DNA of 49,248 nucleotides from a virus (Duplodnaviria; Heunggongvirae; Uroviricota; Caudoviricetes). Positions 3,822-47,696 of the stretch are shown here, piece after piece. Every line of letters begins with the position of its first letter. Within the stretch, counting starts at the first letter, position 1. The notes beneath the pieces are model-generated. The model was not told the origin of the DNA and did no database searches. It worked only from the letters and a program-made list of their open reading frames with translations. A program made the translations under genes and the position numbers. The stretch lies in IMG/VR virus record IMGVR_UViG_2734482538_000012; one strand, 5' to 3'.

Positions 3822-4628
3822 TCAGAACTTATAACCGACACCCACGATGAAACCGTCAGTGCGCCAGTCGCCACTGCCGGAGCCTTCATAAGCAATATCA
3901 ATGGCCACGGATTCGGTCGGGTTAAACTGCACGCCAGCTCCCCACGCCAGAGACGTGTTGCTGTGGCGACCGTCATCACTTCCGGTCAGCACATCGTNNN
4001 NNNNNNNNNNNNNNNNNNNNNNNNNNNNNNNNNNNNNNNNNNNNNNNNNNNNNNNNNNNNNNNNNNNNNNNNNNNNNNNNNNNNNNNNNNNNNNNNNNNN
4101 NNNNNNNNNNNNNNNNNNNNNNNNNNNNNNNNNNNNNNNNNNNNNNNNNNNNNNNNNNNNNNNNNNNNNNNNNNNNNNNNNNNNNNNNNNNNNNNNNNNN
4201 NNNNNNNNNNNNNNNNNNNNNNNNNNNNNNNNNNNNNAATCCCCGGAAAAAGTCGACACACGGCTGTAAGCCACACCCGCCATCGCATACGCGCTGAACC
4301 ATTCATTCACGCGCACAGACGGCCCCGCCATCACGCTGAACCAGCGGTTACGCACGGAATCTTCATGCCAGCGGGTATCGCTGTAACGGGTCAGCTGGCG
4401 ATTCTTGTCTCCTGCATAGCTGAATGACGTCACCAGCCCCAGCGTATCCGTAAACTCATAACGGTATTTCACGTTAATCCCGTTCAGATCATCACTGCCG
4501 GGAACGTTGGTCCGGGCATGAAGATACCCCGCGCTCAGCGTGGACTGATGTTCAGACGCCCATGCAGGCGCACCGGATACGGCCAGGCAAATGGCTGCGG
4601 ACAAAATGGCTGCACAAACTTTACGCAT
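3822..4628 (-). CDS. lom: Outer-membrane protein Lom (Ail/Lom family), interrupted by an assembly gap
   Basis: N-terminus MRKVCAAILSAAICLAVSGAPAWASEHQSTLSAGY and C-terminus ...DGFIVGVGYKF match my recollection of lambda Lom; a 240-nt N-run replaces a short internal segment. Confidence 0.8.
   Translation of the reverse strand: MRKVCAAILSAAICLAVSGAPAWASEHQSTLSAGYLHARTNVPGSDDLNGINVKYRYEFTDTLGLVTSFSYAGDKNRQLTRYSDTRWHEDSVRNRWFSVMAGPSVRVNEWFSAYAMAGVAYSRVSTFSGDXXXXXXXXXXXXXXXXXXXXXXXXXXXXXXXXXXXXXXXXXXXXXXXXXXXXXXXXXXXXXXXXXXXXXXXXXXXXXXXXXDVLTGSDDGRHSNTSLAWGAGVQFNPTESVAIDIAYEGSGSGDWRTDGFIVGVGYKF
3998..4237. other. Assembly gap (240 N) inside lom
   Basis: Run of N characters in the sequence. Confidence 0.99.
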
Positions 4629-4698
4629 AATTACCTCTCGCTTTTCTGCAATAAAAAAGGCGTCATTCCTGACGCCATTTATTGGGGTTATAAATATT

Positions 4699-7600
4699 TC
4701 AACGAATACTGATGCCGGAAGCCGCTTTTTTGGTCACAATCACCGTACAGTCGGTGATATTGCCTGCCCCCTGATTGCCTTTCTGGAAAATCTTAAACTC
4801 CAGAGTGACGCTACCACCACCACTAGGCATATCAATAACTGCACTGTAACTACCGGGAATGGCACCTTTAGTTTCTCTGGATGCGATTAATACGCCGTTT
4901 TTGCGAACTTCAAAACCATAACCCGTGTATCGCGTGCCTCCCGGGTTATTTCCGCTCCCCGGATCGTCATACGCTATACCGTTAAAAATAATGGGCGGAA
5001 TAATAATCTGGCGGTCAAAGTTATGATCATCGCTGATGGTGACTGTAACCGTACCGTCTGGTGTTTCCGTGTTACCCCACGTACCGACTTTTTTCGGGAA
5101 GGCTTTTGATACAGCTTTAACGAAATCCCCTCTGACCTGGGTCGCCTCCAGCATGCCCTTAATCGTACAGTTCTGGTTAATCGTGACATTGTTGAGCGTT
5201 CCTGAGTTCGCATTCACACTACCACTGATATCCGCATTTTTAGCGGTCAGCTTTCCGTCTGATGTCAGGGAAAATACCGGAGGACTGCCACCGCTGGTAA
5301 TGGCGGGGGCTGTCAGGCGCTTCAGGAACACGTCGTTCATGAATATCTGGTTGCCCTGCGCCACAAACATCGGCGTTTCATTCCCGTTTGCCGGGTCAAT
5401 AAACGCGATACGATTGGCGGCAACCAGAAACTGGCTCAGCTTGCCTTCCTCCGTGTCCTCCATGCTGAGGCCAATACCCGCGACATAATGTTTGCCGTCT
5501 TTGGTCTGCTCAATTTTGACGCCCCACATCGCATTCCATTTATCGTTAGCGTCCTTCCACTCTTTCGAAAACTCATCCAGTCTGCTGGCGTTATCCTCCG
5601 TCAGATCAACTTTTTCCAGCAGCTCTTTACCGAGATGGGATTCGGTTATCTTGCCTTTGAAAAAATCCAGGTAACCTTCCGCATCATCGCTCGCCCGACC
5701 GACGGCCTCCACGAATGCCGATTTGCCAACGGTGTTCACACTGCGGATATAAAAGTAATAATCATGGCCCGGTTTGATATTGATACTGGCGGCTATCCAG
5801 TACAGCCCCGCGCCAAGGTAGCGGGCTGTGGTTTCAACCTGCCTGATATCGGTAATCCGCGTTTCCGAGAACCAGAACTCAAACTGTACCGTCGGATCAT
5901 AAACCGCAAGATGCGGCGTGGCAGTTATCTGAAAATAGCCCGGCGTCAGCTCAATCCGCGACGGTGCTACCGGTGCGGCAATCCTGAACGATACCGACGC
6001 CGGATCGCCCTGCTGTCCCCAGGCATTTACCGCCCGGACTGTCAGCGTGTACCGTCCCAGCGCCAGTTGCGTGAAGCGGTATGTGGTTTCCGTCGTCCGG
6101 GCCGTGCTGACCNNNNNNNNNNNNNNNNNNNNNNNNNNNNNNNNNNNNNNNNNNNNNNNNNNNNNNNNNNNNNNNNNNNNNNNNNNNNNNNNNNNNNNNN
6201 NNNNNNNNNNNNNNNNNNNNNNNNNNNNNNNNNNNNNNNNNNNNNNNNNNNNNNNNNNNNNNNNNNNNNNNNNNNNNNNNNNNNNNNNNNNNNNNNNNNN
6301 NNNNNNNNNNNNNNNNNNNNNNNNNNNNNNNNNNNNNNNNNNNNNNNNNNNNNNNNNNNNNNNNNNNNNNNNNNNNNNNNNNNNNNNNNNNNNNNNNNNN
6401 NNNNNNNNNNNNNNNNNNNNNNNNNNNNNNGCCGTCAGGAACACGGCTCACTTTCACCTTCACGCCGTCGGTGACGGACTGAACCTCCACGCTGACCGGA
6501 TTGCCACTTCCGTCAACCAGGCTTATCAGCATGGTACCGGAGGATGGCAGCGTGATTTCACGGTCGAGCGTCAGCGTCCGGGTCTGGCTGTTTACCGCCA
6601 GCACGCGCCCGCCGATGCTGATACCCGCATAGTCATCATCACAGATTTCAATGACATCGCCCGGCACATGGCGAAGCCCTTCTGCGCCCACGCTGAAGTC
6701 CACGGTCTGCGTTTCCAGCAGTTCTGTTTTAATCAGCCACAGCCCGGCGCGGTGTGCCTGCCCCCGGCTGGTACAGCCAAAAGCATCCATCTTCGTGACG
6801 TTACGACCGTAACGGGCAATGGCCTGCGTATCCTCCACAAGCTCTGTCGCCGTCTCCCAGCCGTTATCCGGGTCAATCCAGTTCACCTCAACGGCATTAT
6901 GGCGGTCTTTCAGGGCGCTGAAGCTGTAGCGGAACGGCGCGCCATCATCCGGCATCACCACATTACTGCGGTTATAGGTCCACACCTTATCCGACGGTCG
7001 GTCCTGCACGAACGTCAGCGTCTGCCCGTTCCATACCGGCATACAGCGCATCGCCGAGCAGAAATCACTGAGCACATCCCACGCCTTGCGCTGTGTGGTC
7101 AGGTACGCATTACAGGTGATGCGCGGCTCCGTGCCGCCAAAGCCGTCCGGCACTGACTGGTCGCAGTACTGGCCGATGACATACAGCGCCCATTTGTCCA
7201 CATCCGCCGCACCAAGACGTTTCCCCATGCCGTAGCGCGGGTGGGTCAGCATATCCCACAGACACCAGGCCATGTTGTTGCTGTATGCTGGTTTTAACGT
7301 TCCGTCCCAGATACCGCTGTATTGTCGCGTCTGCGGGTTATAGTTCGACGGCACCTGCAGAATGCGCCCGCGAAGATGATAATTACGANNNNNNNNNNNN
7401 NNNNNNNNNNNNNNNNNNNNNNNNNNNNNNNNNNNNNNNNNNNNNNNNNNNNNNNNNNNNNNNNNNNNNNNNNNNNNNNNNNNNNNNNNNNNNNNNNNNN
7501 NNNNNNNNNNNNNNNNNNNNNNNNNNNNNNNNNNNNNNNNNNNNNNNNNNNNNNNNNNNNNNNNNNNNNNNNNNNNNNNNNNNNNNNNNNNNNNNNNNNN

Positions 7601-8682
7601 NNNNNNNNNNNNNNNNNNNNNNNNNNNNNNNNNNNNNNACAGCGCATCGCCGAGCAGAAATCACTGAGCACATCCCACGCCTTGCGCTGTGTGGTCAGCC
7701 AGGCATTACAGGTGATGCGCGGCTCCGTGCTGCCAAAGCCGTCCGGCACCGACTGGTCACAGTACTGGCCGATGACATACAGCGCCCATTTATCCACATC
7801 TGCCGCACCAAGACGTTTCCCCATGCCATAGCGCGGATGGGTCAGCATATCCCACAGACACCAGGCCATGTTGTTGCTGTATGCCGGTTTTAACGTTCCG
7901 TCCCAGATACCGCTGTATTGCCGCGTCTGCGGATTATAGTTCGACGGCACCTGCAGAATGCGCCCGCGAAGATGATAATTACGGCTCACCTGCTGGCTGC
8001 CGAACTGCTCCGAATCCACCTGTACGCCGACCAGTGCCGTGTTCGGGTAGCACTGTTTCACATCGATGATTTCGGTGTATGACGACCAGAGCGTTTTGTT
8101 CTGCAGCTGGTCTGTGGTGCTGTCCGGTGTCATCCTGCGCATCCGGATACTGAACGGGCGCGGAGGCAGGTTATCCACCACCACCGAGACCAGATACTGC
8201 GAGGTGGTTTTGCCCTTAATGGTGATGTCTTTTTCCGTCACCCAGCCACCGTTACGCTGTATCTGAACCAGCAGGCGAACTTCAGACGGATTCCTGTCTC
8301 CCTTTGAGGTGGTTTCCACCAGTGCCTGTACACCGAAGGTAAAACGCAGTCGGTCAATGTTTGCCGACGTGATGGTCCGGGTGATCGGCGTGTCATATTT
8401 CACTTCCGTACCCAGCACCGTCTCGGAGCCGGAGGATTCAAACCCCTCCGGCGGTGACTGCTCCTGCTCACCTGCCCGGAACACCACCGTGACGCCGGAG
8501 ATGTTGGTATTCCCCTCATTGTCCAGCACCGGCGTACTGTTCAGCAGCACGCTTTTTAATCCATCCACCGGACCTTCAACCGGCCCTTCACTGATGGCAT
8601 CGATCACACTCAGCAGCTGCGTGGACTTCAGGTTGTCCTTCGCTTCGCGCGGGGTATGCCCCTTACTGCTGCCTTTACCCAT
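4699..8682 (-). CDS. J: Tail tip / host specificity protein J, fragmented by two N-gaps and a duplicated flank
   Basis: Three track ORFs (7294-8682, 5951-7354, 4699-6444) are collinear pieces of one J-like protein; N-terminus [41 protein letters not shown] matches lambda J as I recall it; the C-terminal part lies upstream of lom as in lambda. Confidence 0.8.
6113..6430. other. Assembly gap (318 N) inside J
   Basis: Run of N characters. Confidence 0.99.
7043..7983. repeat. About 345 bp of J sequence present on both sides of the 7388-7638 gap as non-identical copies
   Basis: Sequence from acagcgcatcgccgagcagaaatcactgagc to gatgataattacg occurs at about 7043-7387 and again at 7639-7983 with roughly a dozen substitutions; both encode [32 protein letters not shown]... 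Confidence 0.85.
7388..7638. other. Assembly gap (about 251 N) inside J
   Basis: Run of N characters. Confidence 0.99.
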
Positions 8683-8742
8683 TCCTCACGCTCCATAAAC
8701 GACAAAACCGCCCGCAGGCGGTTTCTCATAAAACATTTTGCA

Positions 8743-9390
8743 TCAGCGACCAATCACCACAACCTGACCACCATCCCCTTCGTCTGCCGTGCTGATCTCC
8801 TGAGAAACCACACGTGACCCCACGCGCATTTCCCCGTACAGAACAGGCAGAACATTACCCTGGGCAACCATGTTATCCAGTGACGAGAAATACGTGTTCT
8901 GTTTGCCGTTATCTGTACTGGCTGCCGTGGGCGTCCTGGCTTTCGGTGCCAGCATCTGCGCCACACCACCCAGGATCATACTGGCCCCTGCTGCATACAT
9001 ACCCGATACAGCCGCGGCCCCCAGCCAGCCCACAGGGTTCCACCATGCCACCGCAATCAGCGCCGCACCCAGCACCGCCTGAAACACACCGCCACTTTTG
9101 GCACCCGCCAGACGCGGAACGATGTGGATCACGGCACCATTTGCCAGCGGTTCATTAAGACGGGCAGATAATTCATTTTCGCCTGCATCACGCCCGGCAA
9201 TGCGCACCTGATACCAGCCGTCGCTCAGTTTCTGACGAAATGCCGGGAGCTGTGTGGCCAGTGCCCGGATGGCTTCGGCCCCCGTTTTCACACGAAGGTC
9301 GATGCGGCGGCCAAATCGCTGCAAATCCCCGTAAAGGCAGATGCGTGCCATGCCCGGTGACGCCAGAGGGAGTGTGTGCGTCGCTGCCAT
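8743..9390 (-). CDS. I: Tail assembly protein I
   Basis: 215 aa; N-terminus MAATHTLPLASPGMARICLYGDLQRFGRRIDLRVKTGAEAIRALATQLPAFRQ and C-terminus ...EGDGGQVVVIGR match lambda gpI as I recall it; overlaps the 3' end of K as in lambda. Confidence 0.85.
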   Translation of the reverse strand: MAATHTLPLASPGMARICLYGDLQRFGRRIDLRVKTGAEAIRALATQLPAFRQKLSDGWYQVRIAGRDAGENELSARLNEPLANGAVIHIVPRLAGAKSGGVFQAVLGAALIAVAWWNPVGWLGAAAVSGMYAAGASMILGGVAQMLAPKARTPTAASTDNGKQNTYFSSLDNMVAQGNVLPVLYGEMRVGSRVVSQEISTADEGDGGQVVVIGR

Positions 9391-10031
9391 TTGTCGGTAT
9401 ACCTCTCTCGTTTGCTCAGTTGTTCAGGAATATGGTGCAGCAGCTCGCCGTCACCACAGTAAATGGCGGCATGATTCGGCACCGATGAACCAAAACAGCA
9501 CAGCAGCACATCGCCCGGCTGCGCCGTTGACAACGGCACCTGATACAGCCCTGTAGCCTCCAGATTATCCAGATAGAGATTCTGACCATTACGCCACCAG
9601 TCGTCCTCACGATGAAAATCTGGCATCTCAATTCCCGCCAGATGGTAAGCGTCCCGGAACAGCGTGTAACAGTCCGTCACCCCGTGCTCAAAGCGCCGCC
9701 CGGTGAGATGCGGCACACAGCGGAACTTGTGAATCGCCCCGCGGCAGACCAGCCACCACGACAAATCACTCTGCACCTGCAGCCGCCGGTCGGCCTCACT
9801 CAGCCAGGGCAGACCACCGGGGTGGCTGTGGACCAGCGCCACAATCTCACCCTGCATCTCTGCCTGCAGCCAGTCCTCCGGAGCCATCCGGAAATACTCC
9901 TCCGGCTCACCGGAAATATTCACGCAGGGAAAATATCTTTCCCCCTCCGGTGTTCTCACCACGAAGCCGCACGACTCCGCTGGCGCACATCGCCGGGCGT
10001 GCGCCAGAATCGCTGATTCTGTCTGTGTCAT
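9288..10031 (-). CDS. K: Tail assembly protein K (MPN/JAMM plus NlpC/P60 domains)
   Basis: 247 aa; JAMM-like HSHPGG motif; Cys/His pattern typical of NlpC/P60 (GVTDCYTLFRDAYHLAG); gene order K-I. Confidence 0.85.
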   Translation of the reverse strand: MTQTESAILAHARRCAPAESCGFVVRTPEGERYFPCVNISGEPEEYFRMAPEDWLQAEMQGEIVALVHSHPGGLPWLSEADRRLQVQSDLSWWLVCRGAIHKFRCVPHLTGRRFEHGVTDCYTLFRDAYHLAGIEMPDFHREDDWWRNGQNLYLDNLEATGLYQVPLSTAQPGDVLLCCFGSSVPNHAAIYCGDGELLHHIPEQLSKRERYTDKWQRRTHSLWRHRAWHASAFTGICSDLAAASTFV

Positions 10032-10036
10032 GGGAT

Positions 10037-10735
10037 TTACTGCGAAAGTTTGTTAATGGAAAGGAAGCCGCCAAAGTTGCCGACGTTATTGCGGAACTTA
10101 CAACCGCTCAGGCATTTGCTGCATTTATCCTTCGTGATATCGGACGTTGGCTGGTCATATTCATCCGCGACAGCCGGACCGTGATAACCGCACTCATCAC
10201 CGCGATAGGTCCAGGTGCAGGTATTAGCAAGCATGATGCGCCCCGGAAAAACAGCGCCGTCCGTTTCCGTCGGCGTGGACAGTACAAAGGAGGCACTGAC
10301 CGCGCTCAGTTCGCTGCACTGCTCAATACGCCAGCGGCTGATCACCTCCTGCTCCGGATCGGCGTCACTGTTTCCGTTGACGAAGTTCACCGCATCCAGA
10401 AAACGGGCGTAAACCTTACGCCTGACCACCGTTCCGCCGACCAGACTCTGCAGGTCTTCCGCCATCCCGGTGACCATGCCGTGCAGATTAGAGACTTTCA
10501 GCGTTGGCCTTGCACTGGCACCTTTGCCGTTCATCTCAAATCCACTCCCCTGAATGGGATAGGCCTGATACTGCCGACTCTGCCAGGTGACAGACTCTCC
10601 TTTCTCGTTCTGCTCATTGCAGAAAAAGTAGCGATCCCCGCCTACCTCGGTCAGGTCGATTTCCCAGAGCACCACGCTGGCCGACTGCTCCGCACGAATG
10701 CATTCATTCAGCGTTTCCTGTTGTATGTCCTGCAT
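10037..10735 (-). CDS. L: Minor tail protein L
   Basis: 232 aa, same length as lambda gpL; C-terminal cysteine cluster (CGYHGP...CSKCLSGCKF) consistent with the Fe-S site of gpL; sits between M and K. Confidence 0.85.
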   Translation of the reverse strand: MQDIQQETLNECIRAEQSASVVLWEIDLTEVGGDRYFFCNEQNEKGESVTWQSRQYQAYPIQGSGFEMNGKGASARPTLKVSNLHGMVTGMAEDLQSLVGGTVVRRKVYARFLDAVNFVNGNSDADPEQEVISRWRIEQCSELSAVSASFVLSTPTETDGAVFPGRIMLANTCTWTYRGDECGYHGPAVADEYDQPTSDITKDKCSKCLSGCKFRNNVGNFGGFLSINKLSQ

Positions 10736-11073
10736 CAGATCACCACTTCGTCAAACTGACACGAAAAATCGGTATAGGTGATATGTTCTGTCGCTGACCA
10801 CGTTCGACACACCACTCTGATTTTTCTGTTAATACCCGGCGGGCGCCAAAAAAAAGATTTATAGCCTTCATGCCGGGCTAAAAATTTTTCAAATGAATCA
10901 CGTTCATTCGCCTCAACTTTGAAATCACAGGTGAAAACGCGCAGAGAATGATTAAGTCCATTTGGACTTCGTTGCTCATAACCATCACCAAATCTTACAG
11001 TTTTTATCGATGGTTTATTTTCTGTTTTCATTCCATCCTCTGGTAACCAGTGAAATTCTTCCGTATTAGCCAC
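10735..11073 (-). CDS. M: Minor tail protein M
   Basis: 112 aa; motifs [10 protein letters not shown] and [16 protein letters not shown] resemble lambda gpM; immediately downstream of the tape measure gene. Confidence 0.8.
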
Positions 11074-31067: not shown

Positions 31068-31655
31068 TTTTCCTCACATATGTCATATAGTAAAGGATTA
31101 TATATACCGTTGTTTTGGACGCTCAAACAGCGAATCAGATCAAATAAAACGCACATTTGTTAACATTTACACAAAGTCTGCGTGGGATATTCTGAAAGAA
31201 TATCCATAATGTGGAGAGAATCTATTGAAGTGCATGGTGCCGGGTGCCTCCCGGTGAACAAAATGTTCGTGATACCTGTCGGCGACAGAAAAGGTTAATG
31301 GTATCACCCCACCGCACAGGGGGATTCACCATGCAGGAGTTTTCTTAGCAAACTCACTGCGCGCCCGGCAACTCCCAACCACATAAAATGCGGAGTTTGT
31401 GGCATTTATGCATATAACTCGCAGGAATTATCTTAAAAAACTGATGTCGATCCGGATTAAAAAGAAGCAGGTCATCATCAGATGACTGGAAAAAAGGAAA
31501 ACAAAAAATACTCATCATACAGTTTTGATTGCAGGGATGAGCCTGCTATGCACAATATGCAGAATATAAGCAAGATAAAAATATGCAGGCATATTATTTC
31601 GGATCTTGTTATTAACACAACCTTTTTAATAATCATTTGGCATACAATAAACCAG

Positions 31656-31684: not shown

Positions 31685-32003
31685 GGTCAATACAAAGGAT
31701 GCTTCGTCTTTATTATAGTAATCTGAGGCGTCGGGTGTCTTGTATCAGACAACATATTGTCCCGCTAAACAGCGAATTACAAACCACCCTGCAATGATCT
31801 CTCATCTCATTTTATATGAGTTGACGACATCAGGATAACGCATCATCAGCCCCTGCCAAGAAATATCAAAACTCCCGCCAGCAATGTGTTATCACAATAT
31901 TGTAAAAAAAACACAGCACCGAAACTATAACTGGTCTCTGTTATAATTTGGAGCAGAAAGACCAGTTGCCCAACTAGCAGCATTCTCCCCTGCTTTCCTG
32001 ACG

Positions 32004-32031
32004 TAAAAAAACCGCATTAAGCGGTTTTTTT
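32004..32031. terminator. Bidirectional hairpin terminator about 80 nt downstream of Q (candidate tR'-like element)
   Basis: aaaaaaaccgc-attaa-gcggttttttt: A-run, short GC stem, T-run, so it reads as a terminator on both strands. Confidence 0.5.
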
Positions 32032-32111
32032 ACGATGTCCATGTCTGCAATCCGCCTCGCGATACAGCTTTGCGAAGCATAGCAAAATTGAAGCAGTTTA
32101 TACGTAAGAAA

Positions 32112-32654
32112 TCAAGCCATTTTCTCAGCAAATGATTCACGCATGGGAATATATAGGGCATACTCAGCAACAGCTAACCAATTAGCAATCCGTTTTTCGC
32201 ATGTGCTAAAACACCACTCTGGGTGTGCATCATTTAGCAATTCAGCCATTTTGCGCTTAGTCATCCCCCGCCCTTCATAGCGTTGCCGGAGAATGCAAAT
32301 CAATCCTGGATGCTCTGCCAGCACCTCACTTATGACTCGATCAATACATAACGCCTCTGCATCAGTACAATGCGCCAGCCAGCTCTTTTGCTTGCCGTTG
32401 ATCATCTCTCGCAAAAACGCTTCCAGCTCAGCTTTCTCTATTCCCGCTTTTTTCATTCTGCGCAGGGCTTCATTAATGGCTGTTTTCGTCAGTTTTTTGG
32501 ATGCCAACAACTGATTGAACATATTCCCTGACCTGCCACCGCCAATATACGACCAGCGCCCCCACATACGTAGTTTTCCCTGAATCCAGACACTTTCCAG
32601 CGTGGTGAGGCGAAGGTGTTCTCCGCTTTTTCCTGTATTCGTTGGGTAAATCAT
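32112..32654 (-). CDS. Putative late-gene antitermination protein Q
   Basis: 180 aa ORF last in the nin-region operon and immediately upstream of the terminator/late region and lysis cassette; assignment mainly by position. Confidence 0.5.
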   Translation of the reverse strand: MIYPTNTGKSGEHLRLTTLESVWIQGKLRMWGRWSYIGGGRSGNMFNQLLASKKLTKTAINEALRRMKKAGIEKAELEAFLREMINGKQKSWLAHCTDAEALCIDRVISEVLAEHPGLICILRQRYEGRGMTKRKMAELLNDAHPEWCFSTCEKRIANWLAVAEYALYIPMRESFAEKMA

Positions 32655-32941
32655 AAATGACCTTTCTTTCTCCAGATTTCTTGTGTGCGAAAAACCCCTT
32701 CAGCATGCATCAGGCGCAATTCTTCTTTGGTGTAATCGCTGGTTTTTACCCGCCCGTCGATTAGATCGTGGCATGAGCTACAGGCTATCGCCGCCTGCAT
32801 ATCATGTGGTTTTGTCGCTGTTCCGCACGTCCCCGCCAGCCTGTAATGCGCCAGCACAGAGGTTTCGGGATTGTGATTGCAGTAGCCAGGGATTCTGATC
32901 TGGCACATCTGGCCTTTAGCCGCTTTACGTAAATTCACCAT
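32651..32941 (-). CDS. Nin-region Cys/His-rich protein (YbcO/DUF1364-like)
   Basis: 96 aa; Cys/His pattern CQIRIPGYC...H...C...H...CSSCHDLIDG; same length and gene context as DLP12 YbcO as I recall it. Confidence 0.55.
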   Translation of the reverse strand: MVNLRKAAKGQMCQIRIPGYCNHNPETSVLAHYRLAGTCGTATKPHDMQAAIACSSCHDLIDGRVKTSDYTKEELRLMHAEGVFRTQEIWRKKGHL

Positions 32942-33540
32942 TACGCAAACTCCAGTAGTTGTGCGGCCACATTTTCAACTTCCTCCTGAGAGGAGAATTT
33001 ACGGAACAGAATCCAGTTCCACAGCACATTCAGTACAGATTTATAAACCTGCTGAAACTCGACTTCGTCCATATTCGCAAAAGCGATGGATTTTGCCCGA
33101 CGCCCACGGCTACCGTCCGGATAAATATGCTCGGTGTAAAATCCGGCCTGAATGGTTACCCACTCGCGGAAAGCCTCAAACGACTTTAGCAACGCCGTAT
33201 CCCGGGTTCTACGAGTCGCAACGGTGTTAAGGTATTGCTCTGCGGCATCACTCAGGGCTGGCGTGTGTTCCCGACCAACTGATTCGCACAGGTAATCAAC
33301 GAAACCAGACAGCAGTTCTCGTTCGCGAGGCGTGATCGCCCCACCGACCGGAGTCCAGTAATCGAATCCCAGTTGCAGGAGTTTGAAAAAACGCTTGTGG
33401 AATGCGTAGTTACGCACACGCTTAAAGTCTGCGTGTATCCACTCACCTATTTTGATTTGATGCAGAAAATCGCAACTCTCCGGCGTCGCCGGGAGAAGTA
33501 AACCAGAAGAGGTTTGTTTGACCAGTTGTATATGCGCCAT
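32941..33540 (-). CDS. Nin-region hypothetical protein
   Basis: 199 aa ORF with ATG at 33540, translationally coupled to the downstream gene; no recognisable motif. Confidence 0.45.
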   Translation of the reverse strand: MAHIQLVKQTSSGLLLPATPESCDFLHQIKIGEWIHADFKRVRNYAFHKRFFKLLQLGFDYWTPVGGAITPRERELLSGFVDYLCESVGREHTPALSDAAEQYLNTVATRRTRDTALLKSFEAFREWVTIQAGFYTEHIYPDGSRGRRAKSIAFANMDEVEFQQVYKSVLNVLWNWILFRKFSSQEEVENVAAQLLEFA

Positions 33541-33820
33541 TTCTCAATCTCTCGATGGCGCAGCGCAGCAGATGCCAGTTGTTCAGGCTGACGAATAAAG
33601 TATAAATAAACTGGCTATGGTGTAAAGCCCCACATAGCATGAACAAACACTACATATCAAATAGCTGGTACAAGGATAGAAATACGACACTTATTATTAA
33701 AAACGATTAGATAAATTACATTTTAATGTTATGCAAAAGTTCTTTTTTATCATAACATTTCAATAAAAGCATTACAGATGCAATCATCCCGTCATCATCA
33801 ATTATTTAAGGTGGTTAAAC

Positions 33821-33907
33821 ATGGAAAATAACAAGTTCGCACATCTCGCTCCTTTTTTATCCGTAATCCTTTTCGCTTGTTGTTTTATATGGGCATTATT
33901 TTTATAA
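33821..33907 (+). CDS. Small hydrophobic peptide (28 aa) with a strong ribosome binding site
   Basis: aaggtgg 7 nt upstream of the ATG; hand translation MENNKFAHLAPFLSVILFACCFIWALFL, a single predicted transmembrane helix; lies in AT-rich intergenic DNA. Not in the ORF track (below 60 aa). Confidence 0.3.
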   Translation: MENNKFAHLAPFLSVILFACCFIWALFL

Positions 33908-34353
33908 AGTAGCCACATGATAAGTTGCTGGAATCATATTTCCCACTCAAGTCATTAACATTTGATAAGATATATCTAAAAGGACGCCTTTACATTATTT
34001 ATGCGTATATAATTTATTTATATACACAGTAAAGGTATCCTGGGAAAATATTTATCGTTAAAAAATACATCATAAATAATTAAGCTGAAATTTCAGAACA
34101 CAACTAATACACACAATAAGGTTCAGTAACAGTAATCTATGTGGACTACATCGAGATTTTTTGATTAAACTTTAATAACTTATTCCTAACACACAGAATG
34201 CATAAACTAAAAGTAAAACAAATAGTTATACGAAAAACAACCATATTTATTCTATCTTCTCCTCTAATCAACATATCAATTATGTGTTTCATAACAGCTT
34301 GACATAACCCTCCAAAAGATGCATTTTTAATGCATGTTTTGGAGGAGGTGGTT

Positions 34354-34692
34354 ATGACACACAAGAGAATTCCTAAAGATTGGGTAATCAAACGCTCAAC
34401 TCCGTTCTTCACAAAAGAGAACGTACCTTCAGCGTTATTAACACATCATAATACAGCAGCAGGTGTTTTTGGGCAGTTGTGCGTAATGGAAGGCACTGTA
34501 ACATATTATGGTTTTACTGATGAGAATGCTACTGAACCGGAGATAAAAGTAGTCATTAATGCTGGCGCTTTTGCAACAAGCCCACCACAATACTGGCACC
34601 GTGTTGAACTAAGCGATGATGCTCAGTTTAATATTAACTTTTGGGTCGCTCCAGACTTTTCGGGCGAAAAAGTCTATAGCACCAAAAAATAG
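34354..34692 (+). CDS. Hypothetical protein (112 aa), opposite strand to the surrounding late/nin genes
   Basis: Track ORF 34330-34692; likely start MTHKRIPKDW at 34354 preceded by ggaggaggtgg; terminator-like hairpin downstream. Confidence 0.55.
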   Translation: MTHKRIPKDWVIKRSTPFFTKENVPSALLTHHNTAAGVFGQLCVMEGTVTYYGFTDENATEPEIKVVINAGAFATSPPQYWHRVELSDDAQFNINFWVAPDFSGEKVYSTKK

Positions 34693-34721
34693 ATGATCAT
34701 ATTAAAAATGCTTTAACAGTC

Positions 34722-34758
34722 AGACCCGGCAGGGCTATCCCCGACGGGTCTCATTTTT
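34722..34758 (+). terminator. Putative terminator after the plus-strand gene 34354-34692
   Basis: Inverted repeat agacccg...cgggtct followed by cattttt; coordinates approximate. Confidence 0.4.
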
Positions 34759-35312
34759 GTAAATATATTGGTTCTACATTGACAGGAGACTTCAACCATA
34801 AGAAGTAATCTGAATACTTGAGCAATAAATTTACTTAAGATTAATGAGCGCACCTTGCCGGACAAAGATAAACCAAGGTAACACCTTTTTTCTAGCCAGT
34901 ATGTAATCAATCAGAAAGCCGCTCCATAAGAACAACAGCAAGACAATAAATTGCCATTACAGCCGCAATAGCCAGCGCACATTTGAGAACCAGCACGACA
35001 ACCCCCTGTATTAGACGCACACCAGTCCTGATAAATATGAGGCTGTCTCGTCAGTGATTCAATACAACTATTGGGTATAGTTTCTGTGATTTTATTCTGT
35101 AGAAATGGAACACAACAACCAGTCACCACCAGCACTTCCTTAAATGCTCTAAGTCAGAAACAAGCCAACATTTTAGTCCGCTTTGAGCGATCTGCAGACA
35201 TTGCTAGCAGCCTTCTGTGTGAATTCTCAGGGAGCAGGTCGGCATAGCATCACGTTGAGGCTCTTACCCTACTTGTTCACACCAACCCTAACTCCACAGA
35301 CTGATTCATAAA

Positions 35313-36314
35313 TTAGTAATCTGCGTGTTTCGCACTTTTCAGAAATGCTTTCATATTTTCATTAGGTCGCTCAATTTCGAAGTTACTTCCATATAACTCT
35401 TGTAATTTTGGCCATAACTTACTTAATAACCCTCTCCTGCGATAAAATGGATGTATCCAAACGGTAGATAGGTACGGAGAATTTGCATTTGAATTGTTTA
35501 TTGTGACCAGCCCAACTAAACATTGTCGATAACCACTATTATCCATTGATTGTATTTCTTCGACGAATGGATACGCGATTACATCAGTCCAACCATGATC
35601 GGTTGTATCCCATTGCATTCCGTCATGACATTCCTTCGACTGATAGCGGCGTAAAGCTACACACGCGAGCTTTTGCCAATCTGGAGAATTAATTGTGATC
35701 TCTTCATCGTATGACGCGCCTATTGGAGCGGGTATTGGTCTGATTAATCCAGCATGGCATTCATCATAGAACTTCATGTTTCCCTCAGAAACGTTGTGTA
35801 CGTTGGGTTGCTCCATGTGTGCGCCATTCAAAAATAGCTCTGATAGTAGTGTATCTACACTGTAATCTTTATTGATTATTGTCGGCTTAGAGTTTTTCTT
35901 ATTAAGGCCGCGAGTAACGATTTTTTGATCAATGTTAACAACATGGAATAATCCGTCGGGGAGGCTAGCGAACCACGATGGGGCATCGGACCAGAATAGC
36001 ATGCCTTTTGTACTTCTTAAGAGTTTAATTAAGTTAATACAAGCTTCTTCACTAGTCTTGCCGTTGATGCGAAGTATGTTAGGACTAAAGTAATATTCAT
36101 CCATATCAGGGAATGCAGCTTCGCAAAACTCCTGTACATAATTTAGCACCTGGATTCTACAGAGATCATCATAGCTGGTAATAACTAAGGGGGTATCTTC
36201 ATTACTATTATGATTATCAATAATGCAATCTATAGCGAGACTTACTGCTTTGCGTATCACTTCAGTTGAATCTAACGACTCTAAAAATTTTGTCTTTCGT
36301 GTGCGAATATCCAT
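35313..36314 (-). CDS. Hypothetical protein with C-terminal GNAT-like (acetyltransferase-like) region
   Basis: 333 aa ORF 15 nt downstream of the HEPN-motif gene; C-terminal segment CLVGLVTINN...STVWIHPFYRRRGLLSKLWPKLQELYG resembles the beta4-alpha3 acetyl-CoA-binding motif of GNAT enzymes; AT-rich codon usage. Confidence 0.5.
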   Translation of the reverse strand: MDIRTRKTKFLESLDSTEVIRKAVSLAIDCIIDNHNSNEDTPLVITSYDDLCRIQVLNYVQEFCEAAFPDMDEYYFSPNILRINGKTSEEACINLIKLLRSTKGMLFWSDAPSWFASLPDGLFHVVNIDQKIVTRGLNKKNSKPTIINKDYSVDTLLSELFLNGAHMEQPNVHNVSEGNMKFYDECHAGLIRPIPAPIGASYDEEITINSPDWQKLACVALRRYQSKECHDGMQWDTTDHGWTDVIAYPFVEEIQSMDNSGYRQCLVGLVTINNSNANSPYLSTVWIHPFYRRRGLLSKLWPKLQELYGSNFEIERPNENMKAFLKSAKHADY

Positions 36315-36329
36315 GTATGACCTGCGCTA

Positions 36330-37352
36330 TTAAAATTCATGAATGAACGGTTTGTCATCTGGTTGCAAAATGGTGGTTTTATTCGTTGCTACATTTAAAC
36401 TGTTGTAGAGCATAATTGCCAGGTTCGATGCATTTTCAATCAGCGTTTCAAGATCCTGGTCTGTAATCACTACGAGGTTCCCTTCTTTATCCTTTCCACC
36501 ACGATGCACTAAGTGATTTCGATTGAGGGTTGCCAATTCAATAGCTTCTATCGGACAGTCTTTTTGTACTTTTATATCGAATGTAGCTTCATAGCGGTCG
36601 ATTACCTTTTTAGTGCTATGCCAGCTTGCACTGATCAAGTGTTCCTTGATTGACCTGATTAGCTCTCCCCTAATTTTCTCGATGGGTTCACCCTTGAAAG
36701 GCAACGCAGCAATATCTTTGCTTACTTTAAATTCAGTCTTACCTTTTTCTATACAATTGGCTATGTAGACATCATCTTTCTCTATAGAATTAATGAATAG
36801 CTCAACATAAAGCGTTTCCAAAGCTGTAATAACATTCGTGTAGAGCAAACTAAGCAAGTGGTTTTTTTGCTGTTGTTCAGTTTTATCTTTTGCAAGTTTT
36901 TTTATTTTATCGATATTATCAATGAATTTTAAATACGGATTACCGGAAGACGTTACAGCGTCGTAGATATCATCATCGTACCAATCATCTATATTATTTG
37001 AGTTTCCAGACCAGTCAAAACATTGTGTTTGTAATTCATCTACTAATTCCTCAATATACTCAGATTTAACATATTGACCGAAGATGGATTGTAGTTCTTC
37101 GCTCGCATCATACGGCCCGCCATATATGTAAGCATAGCCACCTTCTCTACTTTCATACGGACAAGCATTTGCCGGATCTTCAAAGTTTTCAAAGAACCAG
37201 TTTTTCATTACTTCGAGTTGATCTTTTTTGCTTATGTATTTTAAAGATTTTAGTGGAACTTTCTTTCCATTAACCTCGAAAACAATTTTCACGATGTAAC
37301 GCTCCCTTGTATCAATTGCGCAACTATTATACCACAGCGAAATACAGGGCAT
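36330..37352 (-). CDS. Hypothetical protein with HEPN-type R-x4-H motif
   Basis: Track ORF 36330-37421; likely start at ATG 37352 (MPCISLWYN) with an AAGGAGG Shine-Dalgarno 6 nt upstream; canonical RNxxxH motif (LNRNHLVHRGG, encoded about 36504-36521) in a predicted helical C-terminal region; AT-rich. Confidence 0.5.
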   Translation of the reverse strand: MPCISLWYNSCAIDTRERYIVKIVFEVNGKKVPLKSLKYISKKDQLEVMKNWFFENFEDPANACPYESREGGYAYIYGGPYDASEELQSIFGQYVKSEYIEELVDELQTQCFDWSGNSNNIDDWYDDDIYDAVTSSGNPYLKFIDNIDKIKKLAKDKTEQQQKNHLLSLLYTNVITALETLYVELFINSIEKDDVYIANCIEKGKTEFKVSKDIAALPFKGEPIEKIRGELIRSIKEHLISASWHSTKKVIDRYEATFDIKVQKDCPIEAIELATLNRNHLVHRGGKDKEGNLVVITDQDLETLIENASNLAIMLYNSLNVATNKTTILQPDDKPFIHEF

Positions 37353-37490
37353 AACCTGCCTCCTTAAACTAACATACCATGAGCCAGCAATGTCCGCTAT
37401 TGGCACAAAGCGGACAACCACGCTAGCTCTCCCCTGTGCCAGAAAAATGTCAATTTACATATGAACTAATGCTCTTTGATCTAGTAACGT

Positions 37491-47507: not shown

Positions 47508-47696
47508 ATGTATAAAATTACCGCCACTATTGAAAAGGAAGGTGGCACTCCTACTAACTGGACAAGATATTCAAAATCTAAACTAACGAAATCAGAATGC
47601 GAAAAAATGCTCTCAGGTAAAAAAGAAGCAGGCGTTTCCAGAGAGCAGAAAGTAAAACTGATAAATTTTAATTGCGAGAAACTTCAGTCCTCGTGA
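47508..47696 (+). CDS. ydaC: YdaC-like small protein
   Basis: Track ORF 47436-47696; likely start MYKITATIEKEGGTPTNWTRY at 47508 preceded by ggagg; gene order ralR / ydaC / xis as in Rac. Confidence 0.6.
   Translation: MYKITATIEKEGGTPTNWTRYSKSKLTKSECEKMLSGKKEAGVSREQKVKLINFNCEKLQSS

Follow-up and report, generated by a model that had tools for sequence, protein, structure and literature searches.

The virus record IMGVR_UViG_2734482538_000012 (Duplodnaviria; Heunggongvirae; Uroviricota; Caudoviricetes) is a stretch of 49,248 nucleotides, referred to below as the window, that carries on its minus strand a cassette of two co-directional genes. The upstream gene, A, encodes a protein with a HEPN motif and the downstream gene, B, a protein with a predicted GNAT fold. 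An initial annotation, made from the sequence alone, had presented this cassette as an undescribed defence or toxin-antitoxin (TA) module. It is in fact already known, having been published by DeWeirdt et al. (DefensePredictor, Science 2026) under the name DS-33 as a system acting against phages. When compared as strings with the sequences of Table S8 (PMC13092281), protein A is identical to DS-33A at 320/320 residues and protein B to DS-33B at 332/333, the sole difference being P289L, and the gene order and spacing are the same in the DS-33 clone and in the window. The discovery value is small, since DS-33 already has a name and a phenotype; the additions made here are a gene model, a comparative genomic analysis and a caveat concerning the P289L allele.

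Gene model of the cassette

The genes, their domains and their putative expression signals are the following.

37326 to 37334, minus strand: putative extended -10 promoter element TGgTATAAT, as read from the sequence
37302 to 37306, minus strand: Shine-Dalgarno sequence GGGAG, 9 nt before the GTG of gene A, at a position conserved in E. coli, Serratia and Aeromonas
36330 to 37292, minus strand: gene A (DS-33A), 320 aa, WP_014639476.1, candidate HEPN/RES N-terminal domain 1 (NTD1) plus HEPN, defence effector
36948 to 37292, minus strand: N-terminal domain of A (candidate NTD1, PF18870), residues ~1-115, presumed regulatory or sensor domain
36369 to 36938, minus strand: HEPN domain of A, residues ~119-308
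36504 to 36521, minus strand: Rx4H catalytic motif R258-N-H-L-V-H263 of A, with R258, H263 and R264 invariant (codons checked)
35313 to 36314, minus strand: gene B (DS-33B), 333 aa, WP_000354966.1, two domains, the C-terminal one of predicted GNAT fold, accessory
35745 to 36314, minus strand: N-terminal domain of B, residues ~1-190, family-specific according to phmmer, no Pfam match
35316 to 35702, minus strand: GNAT-fold domain of B, residues ~205-333, including the beta4-alpha3 segment LSTVWIHPFYRRRGLL (35415-35468)

As the initial annotation had described, two minus-strand open reading frames lie 15 nt apart, at 35313-36314 (333 aa) and 36330-37421 (longest frame). The start that it had chosen for gene A, ATG 37352 behind a "perfect AAGGAGG", does not hold, even if the motif itself exists. 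This ATG is absent in the Aeromonas copy, lies upstream of the conserved extended -10 element and disagrees with the 320 aa recorded in RefSeq. What is conserved is the GGGAG sequence, its 9-nt spacer and the GTG at 37292. A start at this GTG yields a protein of 320 aa, in agreement with RefSeq WP_014639476.1 and with the published protein, and all the homologues of A measure 310-326 aa. The Aeromonas copy, which has no ATG at the equivalent place, has kept the extended -10 element, a GGAG box and the GTG. The element TGgTATAAT is common to the copies of E. coli, Serratia and Aeromonas and to a Rahnella copy containing B only; it was missed by a consensus scan for promoters and terminators, which requires a -35 box and performed at chance level. 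As a consequence of the revised start, the residues numbered R301 and H306 on the 363-aa longest frame are R258 and H263 of the true protein.

The base composition of the cassette sets it apart from the flanking phage genes, as had been proposed. The GC content amounts to 0.361 for gene A and 0.391 for gene B, against 0.465 for the whole window, 0.498 for the block running from the DUF977 gene to ydaU and 0.485 for positions 32000-33540. The stretch adjacent to the cassette (33541-35162) is however equally AT-rich, with a GC content of 0.358, so that the cassette belongs to a wider cargo zone. The absence of this region from the Rac prophage of K-12 was also verified: its annotation proceeds from ydaU and ydaV to a short ydaW and then directly to rzpR and trkG, without the DUF977 gene and without the cassette.

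The HEPN protein and its defence phenotype

The motif LNRNHLVH noticed in the initial annotation is present at 36504-36521, and its R258 and H263 are invariant among the 46 homologues of A that were aligned, down to 26% identity, together with R264, E159, W224 and H225. The AlphaFold model of A (predicted local distance difference test, pLDDT, 87) contains a C-terminal helical bundle, and both the predicted all-alpha up-down fold of this bundle and the conserved Rx4-6H motif are those of the HEPN superfamily. The N-terminal domain matches PF18870 in 44/46 homologues at E <= 0.01, with M29, W32, F33, P40, P45, G52, G58, G59 and P60 invariant; on protein A of the window itself, the match (E 1.9e-4, 22.2 bits) falls below the cut-off of 27.4. 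The family PF18735 (RiboL-PSP-HEPN) is matched by 15/46 homologues, with a best E of 8.2e-9, and gives no match at E <= 1 on protein A of the window. According to Anantharaman et al. (2013), RiboL-PSP-HEPN proteins are distantly related to AbiD/AbiF and occur in ParB-containing operons. A sequence search of the PDB returned chance matches only. PADLOC and NCBIfam searches gave nothing usable for A or B, PHROGs contained only two families of "unknown function" corresponding to them, and the cassette was not found among deposited phage genomes. The literature on RiboL-PSP, on HEPN with GNAT and on a domain-centric screen says nothing about the A-B pair, and NTD1 is not mentioned in the eLife 2020 paper on conflict systems.

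The experimental data come from the supplementary tables of PMC13092281, the main text of which does not discuss DS-33 individually. In Table S6, a validated system with the working name "GNAT" and the final name DS-33 comprises WP_014639476.1 and WP_000354965.1, from an ECOR assembly. The second accession is the L289 allele of B carried by the clone, whereas the window encodes the conserved P289 allele (WP_000354966.1). The DefensePredictor scores are 9.45 for A and 1.08, a low value, for B, and the nearest known defence protein given for A is PD-T4-2_B (HHblits probability of 96.1, over 55% of A). Table S7 reports the protection conferred on MG1655 by the wild-type clone, as log10 values in two replicates: 3.8/2.6 against T7, 3.3/2.4 against T3, 4.0/2.0 against Bas67 and 5.0/5.9 against Bas26. 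Protection is lost upon deletion of the HEPN gene (log10 values between -0.5 and 0.5) and in the R258A mutant (0.8 or less). It is kept when the GNAT gene is deleted, with values of 4.8/4.3 for T7, 3.3/3.3 for T3, 4.0/3.3 for Bas67 and 5.0/4.9 for Bas26. The anti-phage character suspected from the sequence had therefore been demonstrated experimentally, and the proposal of a two-component or TA module was not borne out, since the strain deprived of the GNAT gene is viable and its protection is maintained or slightly raised.

These measurements also bear on the idea of a plain addiction module that would stabilize the prophage and have no role in phage defence. The cassette does sit in a cryptic prophage with other toxin systems, namely RalR/RalA and genes annotated as YdaT and KilR. 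Such a module is nevertheless extremely improbable in view of the 2 to 6 log by which four phages are reduced in an R258-dependent manner (PMC13092281) and of the viability observed without any partner.

The GNAT-fold partner and its linkage to the HEPN gene

The C-terminal segment of B that had been likened to the beta4-alpha3 region of GNAT acetyltransferases is indeed present (VWIHPFYRRRGLLSKL), with W286, H288, P289 and R292 invariant in 36 homologues, and a mixed alpha/beta GNAT fold is predicted by a model of good quality (pLDDT 89.8, predicted template modelling score 0.83). The Pfam family Acetyltransf_1 matches 14/36 homologues of B, with a best E of 6e-6, and scores 19.9 bits on B of the window against a gathering score of 20.7. 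The GNAT motif A (Q/R-x-x-G-x-G/A) is not reproduced in B, which reads R292-R-R-G295-L-L297 with a leucine at the last position; within the family, R292 never varies, and several members have K, R or Q at the place of G295. The top Foldseek matches are HAT1, ESCO1, MYST and ATAT (alpha-tubulin acetyltransferase), all protein lysine acetyltransferases, at an identity of 11-18% and a template modelling score of only ~0.25 over the full length. Unlike the architectures of these enzymes, B possesses an N-terminal domain found nowhere else: a phmmer search with residues 1-191 retrieved 20 hits among 1.84 billion representatives, all of them B-family proteins or fragments, and detected no other architecture containing this domain. 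On the basis of its model, B is a HAT1-like two-domain protein of acyltransferase fold, with putative acyl-CoA binding and transfer.

A particular residue of this fold deserves attention. Position 289 (codon 35448-35450) is a proline in 92/92 collected sequences and a leucine in the published DS-33B clone. P289 lies in the predicted cofactor-binding beta4-alpha3 turn, as part of the invariant segment W-x-H-P. Since the allele tested was mutated at an invariant residue, the published dispensability of the GNAT gene may rest on a defective protein. An acyltransferase role would have been overlooked for this reason, the only published assay having used this allele. It is conceivable on these grounds, even if unlikely, that B is a functional acyltransferase by which the HEPN defence is adjusted or broadened, through acetylation of A itself, of an RNA or translation component of the host, or of an inhibitor encoded by the phage. 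If B tuned A by acetylation, the cassette would become the first known defence system with an acetylation-controlled HEPN nuclease.

The relationship between the two genes was investigated on 185 loci gathered from genomes, metagenomes and viral contigs. In all the loci with enough downstream DNA and an A that shares 84% identity or more with that of the window, B comes next with the 15-nt spacing (67/67). Below 75% identity of A, B is absent (61/61), and below 62% identity of B, A is absent (11/11). The pairing is thus confined to one clade and is not the regular co-occurrence of a toxin with its antitoxin; the obligate pairing implied at the outset is contradicted by the solitary occurrence of both genes across almost the whole of their families. 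Solo A genes neighbour integrases and the ends of prophages, as well as TA or defence genes, and no hidden conserved partner was detected beside them, the recurrent neighbours being only an integrase and some lineage-specific genes. The contexts of solo B genes are assorted and include plainly chromosomal ones; some of these genes adjoin Abi_2, SIR2 or antirestriction genes. Both genes are intact in 69/76 paired loci, with breaks on either side. One locus (L046) has an internal stop in B and an intact A. In the complete genome of E. coli MB56 (L180, NZ_CP073936.1), an insertion sequence (IS) interrupts codon 13 of B, and A is intact there too. In four loci, B is present at 86-91% identity without an A gene; the leader of the cassette is joined there to the terminal 40-60 nt of A. 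The occurrence of these fusions at two different junctions points to independent deletions of A.

The synonymous divergence (dS) between E. coli and Aeromonas is equal for the two genes (0.43 and 0.48). The ratio of nonsynonymous to synonymous divergence (dN/dS) reaches 0.12-0.21 in A and 0.19-0.34 in B, and lies at 0.26-0.46 in the B-only copies. This equal dS and the low dN/dS indicate that A and B have been linked and both kept functional. Judged by these comparisons, B is under purifying selection, also in the B-only copies that have lost A, and is clearly a selected, functional gene, and the A-B pairing is a recent linkage within one young clade. The origin of A in a family of solo genes, together with this recent pairing, accounts for the null effect of the published GNAT deletion.

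The distribution of the two genes and the published deletions argue for a defence carried out by the HEPN protein alone, to which an accessory gene is linked, and not for a TA pair. A probability of about 0.85 is given to this explanation as a whole, including the movement of the pair as a ~2.2 kb unit into a cargo hotspot that immediately follows the DUF977 gene in Rac-like prophages. An obligate TA system is unlikely because A is tolerated and protects in the absence of B, B is missing beside most relatives of A, and natural loci with a damaged B exist. According to the favoured explanation, A is a self-contained HEPN effector of the AbiD/F-like kind. By analogy with the HEPN superfamily, it would act as a metal-independent RNase, with an active site formed by two paired HEPN domains. 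The protein would be held silent until infection through its N-terminal domain, the candidate NTD1, and would then cut RNA and halt phage growth, probably at the expense of the infected cell. Gene B would be co-transcribed from the same promoter, outside the core defence mechanism, and would not be an antitoxin on which A depends.

Several observations weigh against this explanation. The RNase activity, the target, the trigger and the abortive infection attributed to A are drawn from analogy, and protein A of the window stays under the cut-off of PF18870 and has no match to PF18735. The contribution of B may never have been assayed with a working protein, given the P289L clone. Finally, A is never found without B in the paired clade (0/67), which leaves room for a dependence hidden from a plasmid assay.

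This last point also speaks for a covalent control resembling type VII TA systems, in which B would acetylate or otherwise restrain A and infection would relieve the brake, in the way that MntA AMPylates HepT. The losses in the paired clade are asymmetric, with B-only loci produced by deletion of A at two junctions and no A-only locus. With B deleted, protection was up to 1.7 log higher (from 2.6 to 4.3 for T7 and from 2.0 to 3.3 for Bas67), the 15-nt spacing and the single promoter persist in copies as little as 78% identical, and the best structural matches of B modify lysines in proteins. However, the GNAT-deletion strain exists and defends, so that A alone is tolerated; the natural source strain has P289L in B beside an intact A; the relatives of A that are at most 74% identical are solo in 61/61 loci; B is broken next to an intact A in the two loci described above, by a stop and by an IS; and homologues of B stand alone in ordinary chromosomal contexts. 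Covalent control is considered quite improbable. A regulatory role for B retains a low probability owing to the 0/67 count, the 1.7-log rise and the P289L allele.

Another possibility, somewhat doubtful but not negligible, is that B fulfils an independent second function on the same transcript. It could act as a defence in its own right or antagonize an inhibitor made by the phage, in which case it would matter only against phages outside the tested panel, or provide the host with a benefit unrelated to phages. The B family is mostly solo and in non-mobile contexts, its B-only copies keep the cassette promoter at the dN/dS given above, its DefensePredictor score is low compared with that of A, and the vicinity of some solo B genes to Abi_2, SIR2 or antirestriction genes fits such a function. 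On the other hand, the linkage to A is strict across genera, B has no known phenotype, its acyl-CoA binding is putative, and the G of the Q/RxxGxG/A loop is not conserved in the family.

The favoured single-protein defence can be compared with known systems. A shares with AbiD/AbiF, Abi_2 and DS-11 (CBS-HEPN) the combination in one polypeptide of an Rx4H HEPN effector and an N-terminal domain that in A is presumed to be regulatory, the location on mobile elements and the lack of need for an antitoxin. It differs from them by the absence of a Pfam Abi_2 match and by another N-terminal domain, and its abortive phenotype is presumed. PD-T4-2, a two-gene defence of E. coli (Vassallo et al. 2022), contains a PF18735 HEPN protein, of the subfamily to which the HEPN domain of A probably belongs. 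This protein is paired with a DUF262/ParB-like protein, whereas the cassette has no such partner and A carries a candidate NTD1 and works alone; no DUF262 was found in or beside the cassette, and the PADLOC models of PD-T4-2 gave no match. In the type VII system HepT-MntA (HEPN-MNT), the partner is a nucleotidyltransferase; here it has a predicted GNAT fold and is dispensable, no NTP_transf domain was detected in B or its neighbours, and A is a protein of 320 aa with an additional domain.

The GNAT toxins TacT, AtaT and KacT are single-domain proteins of ~170 aa accompanied by an adjacent DUF1778/ribbon-helix-helix (RHH) antitoxin. B resembles them by its predicted GNAT fold and its location on a mobile element. 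Unlike them, it counts 333 aa distributed over two domains, lacks an RHH neighbour and is also maintained as a solo gene; no small adjacent reading frame with an RHH/DUF1778 domain was found, as would be expected for TacAT or AtaRT.

Mobility, boundaries and neighbouring cargo

The A-B pair was detected in Rac-like prophages of 205/5426 complete E. coli genomes and also in Serratia and Aeromonas. Its presence in these three genera in differing contexts supports the horizontal acquisition that had been deduced from base composition, and designates the cassette as mobile. An inverted-repeat search delimited it by two elements.

37383 to 37428, minus strand: upstream boundary element, located ~50 nt past the DUF977 gene and consisting of one arm, with a hairpin, of an imperfect inverted repeat of 46 nt
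35163 to 35208, minus strand: downstream boundary element, second arm of the inverted repeat

The DNA hairpin of the upstream arm has a folding free energy (dG) of -14.2 kcal/mol and a z of -4.6. Homology with the Serratia, Rahnella and Mangrovibacter copies starts at this arm, and homology with the Serratia and Mangrovibacter copies and with one further locus (L173) ends just past the downstream arm. The two repeats were at one point considered private to the cassette. This was rejected, the upstream one being a common element of the prophage backbone: the hairpin element (46-61 nt; 37375-37435 in the window) occurs in 2068/5426 complete E. coli genomes (38%), always ~50 nt after the DUF977 gene. 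The cargo behind it varies and consists of unrelated hypothetical genes, of QueH plus hokD or of the prophage end. The DUF977-proximal hairpin seems to mark the edge of a hotspot for cargo, situated where the replication module ends, or a site at which modules are exchanged, and the site following the DUF977 gene looks useful as a hotspot to mine.

The Aeromonas pair (L024-L027, ~4420-10963), in which A is 87% and B 78% identical to the window, is located outside a prophage and has a Thoeris system (SIR2-STALD ThsA and TIR ThsB) within ~3 kb. In one Aeromonas strain, the pair adjoins a class 1 integron remnant. It is preceded by a protein of 138 aa, without Pfam hit, which we take to resemble E. 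coli HigA. In E. coli MB56, two ISSen4 copies bracket gene A, ~70 nt upstream of it and at codon 13 of B, in a composite-transposon-like arrangement containing the HEPN gene alone. A 3.3-kb contig filed as a Collinsella metagenome-assembled genome (L012, JAIHTM010000277.1) carries a cassette 100% identical to that of E. coli; this assignment is probably a binning error.

In the window, the region between the cassette and the DUF1367 gene contains further cargo. Positions 33541-34692 are very AT-rich (GC content of 0.29 at 33600-34400) and are devoid of reading frames of at least 50 aa until a DUF1971/TehB-like gene on the plus strand, at 34330-34692. No tRNA or Rfam family was found within or beside the cassette. 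Elsewhere in the window, the Rfam matches reaching the gathering score include IS009 (256-454), the small RNA (sRNA) STnc100 (31178-31364) and RalA (47514-47692), which is the sRNA antitoxin to RalR in a type I TA system of Rac.

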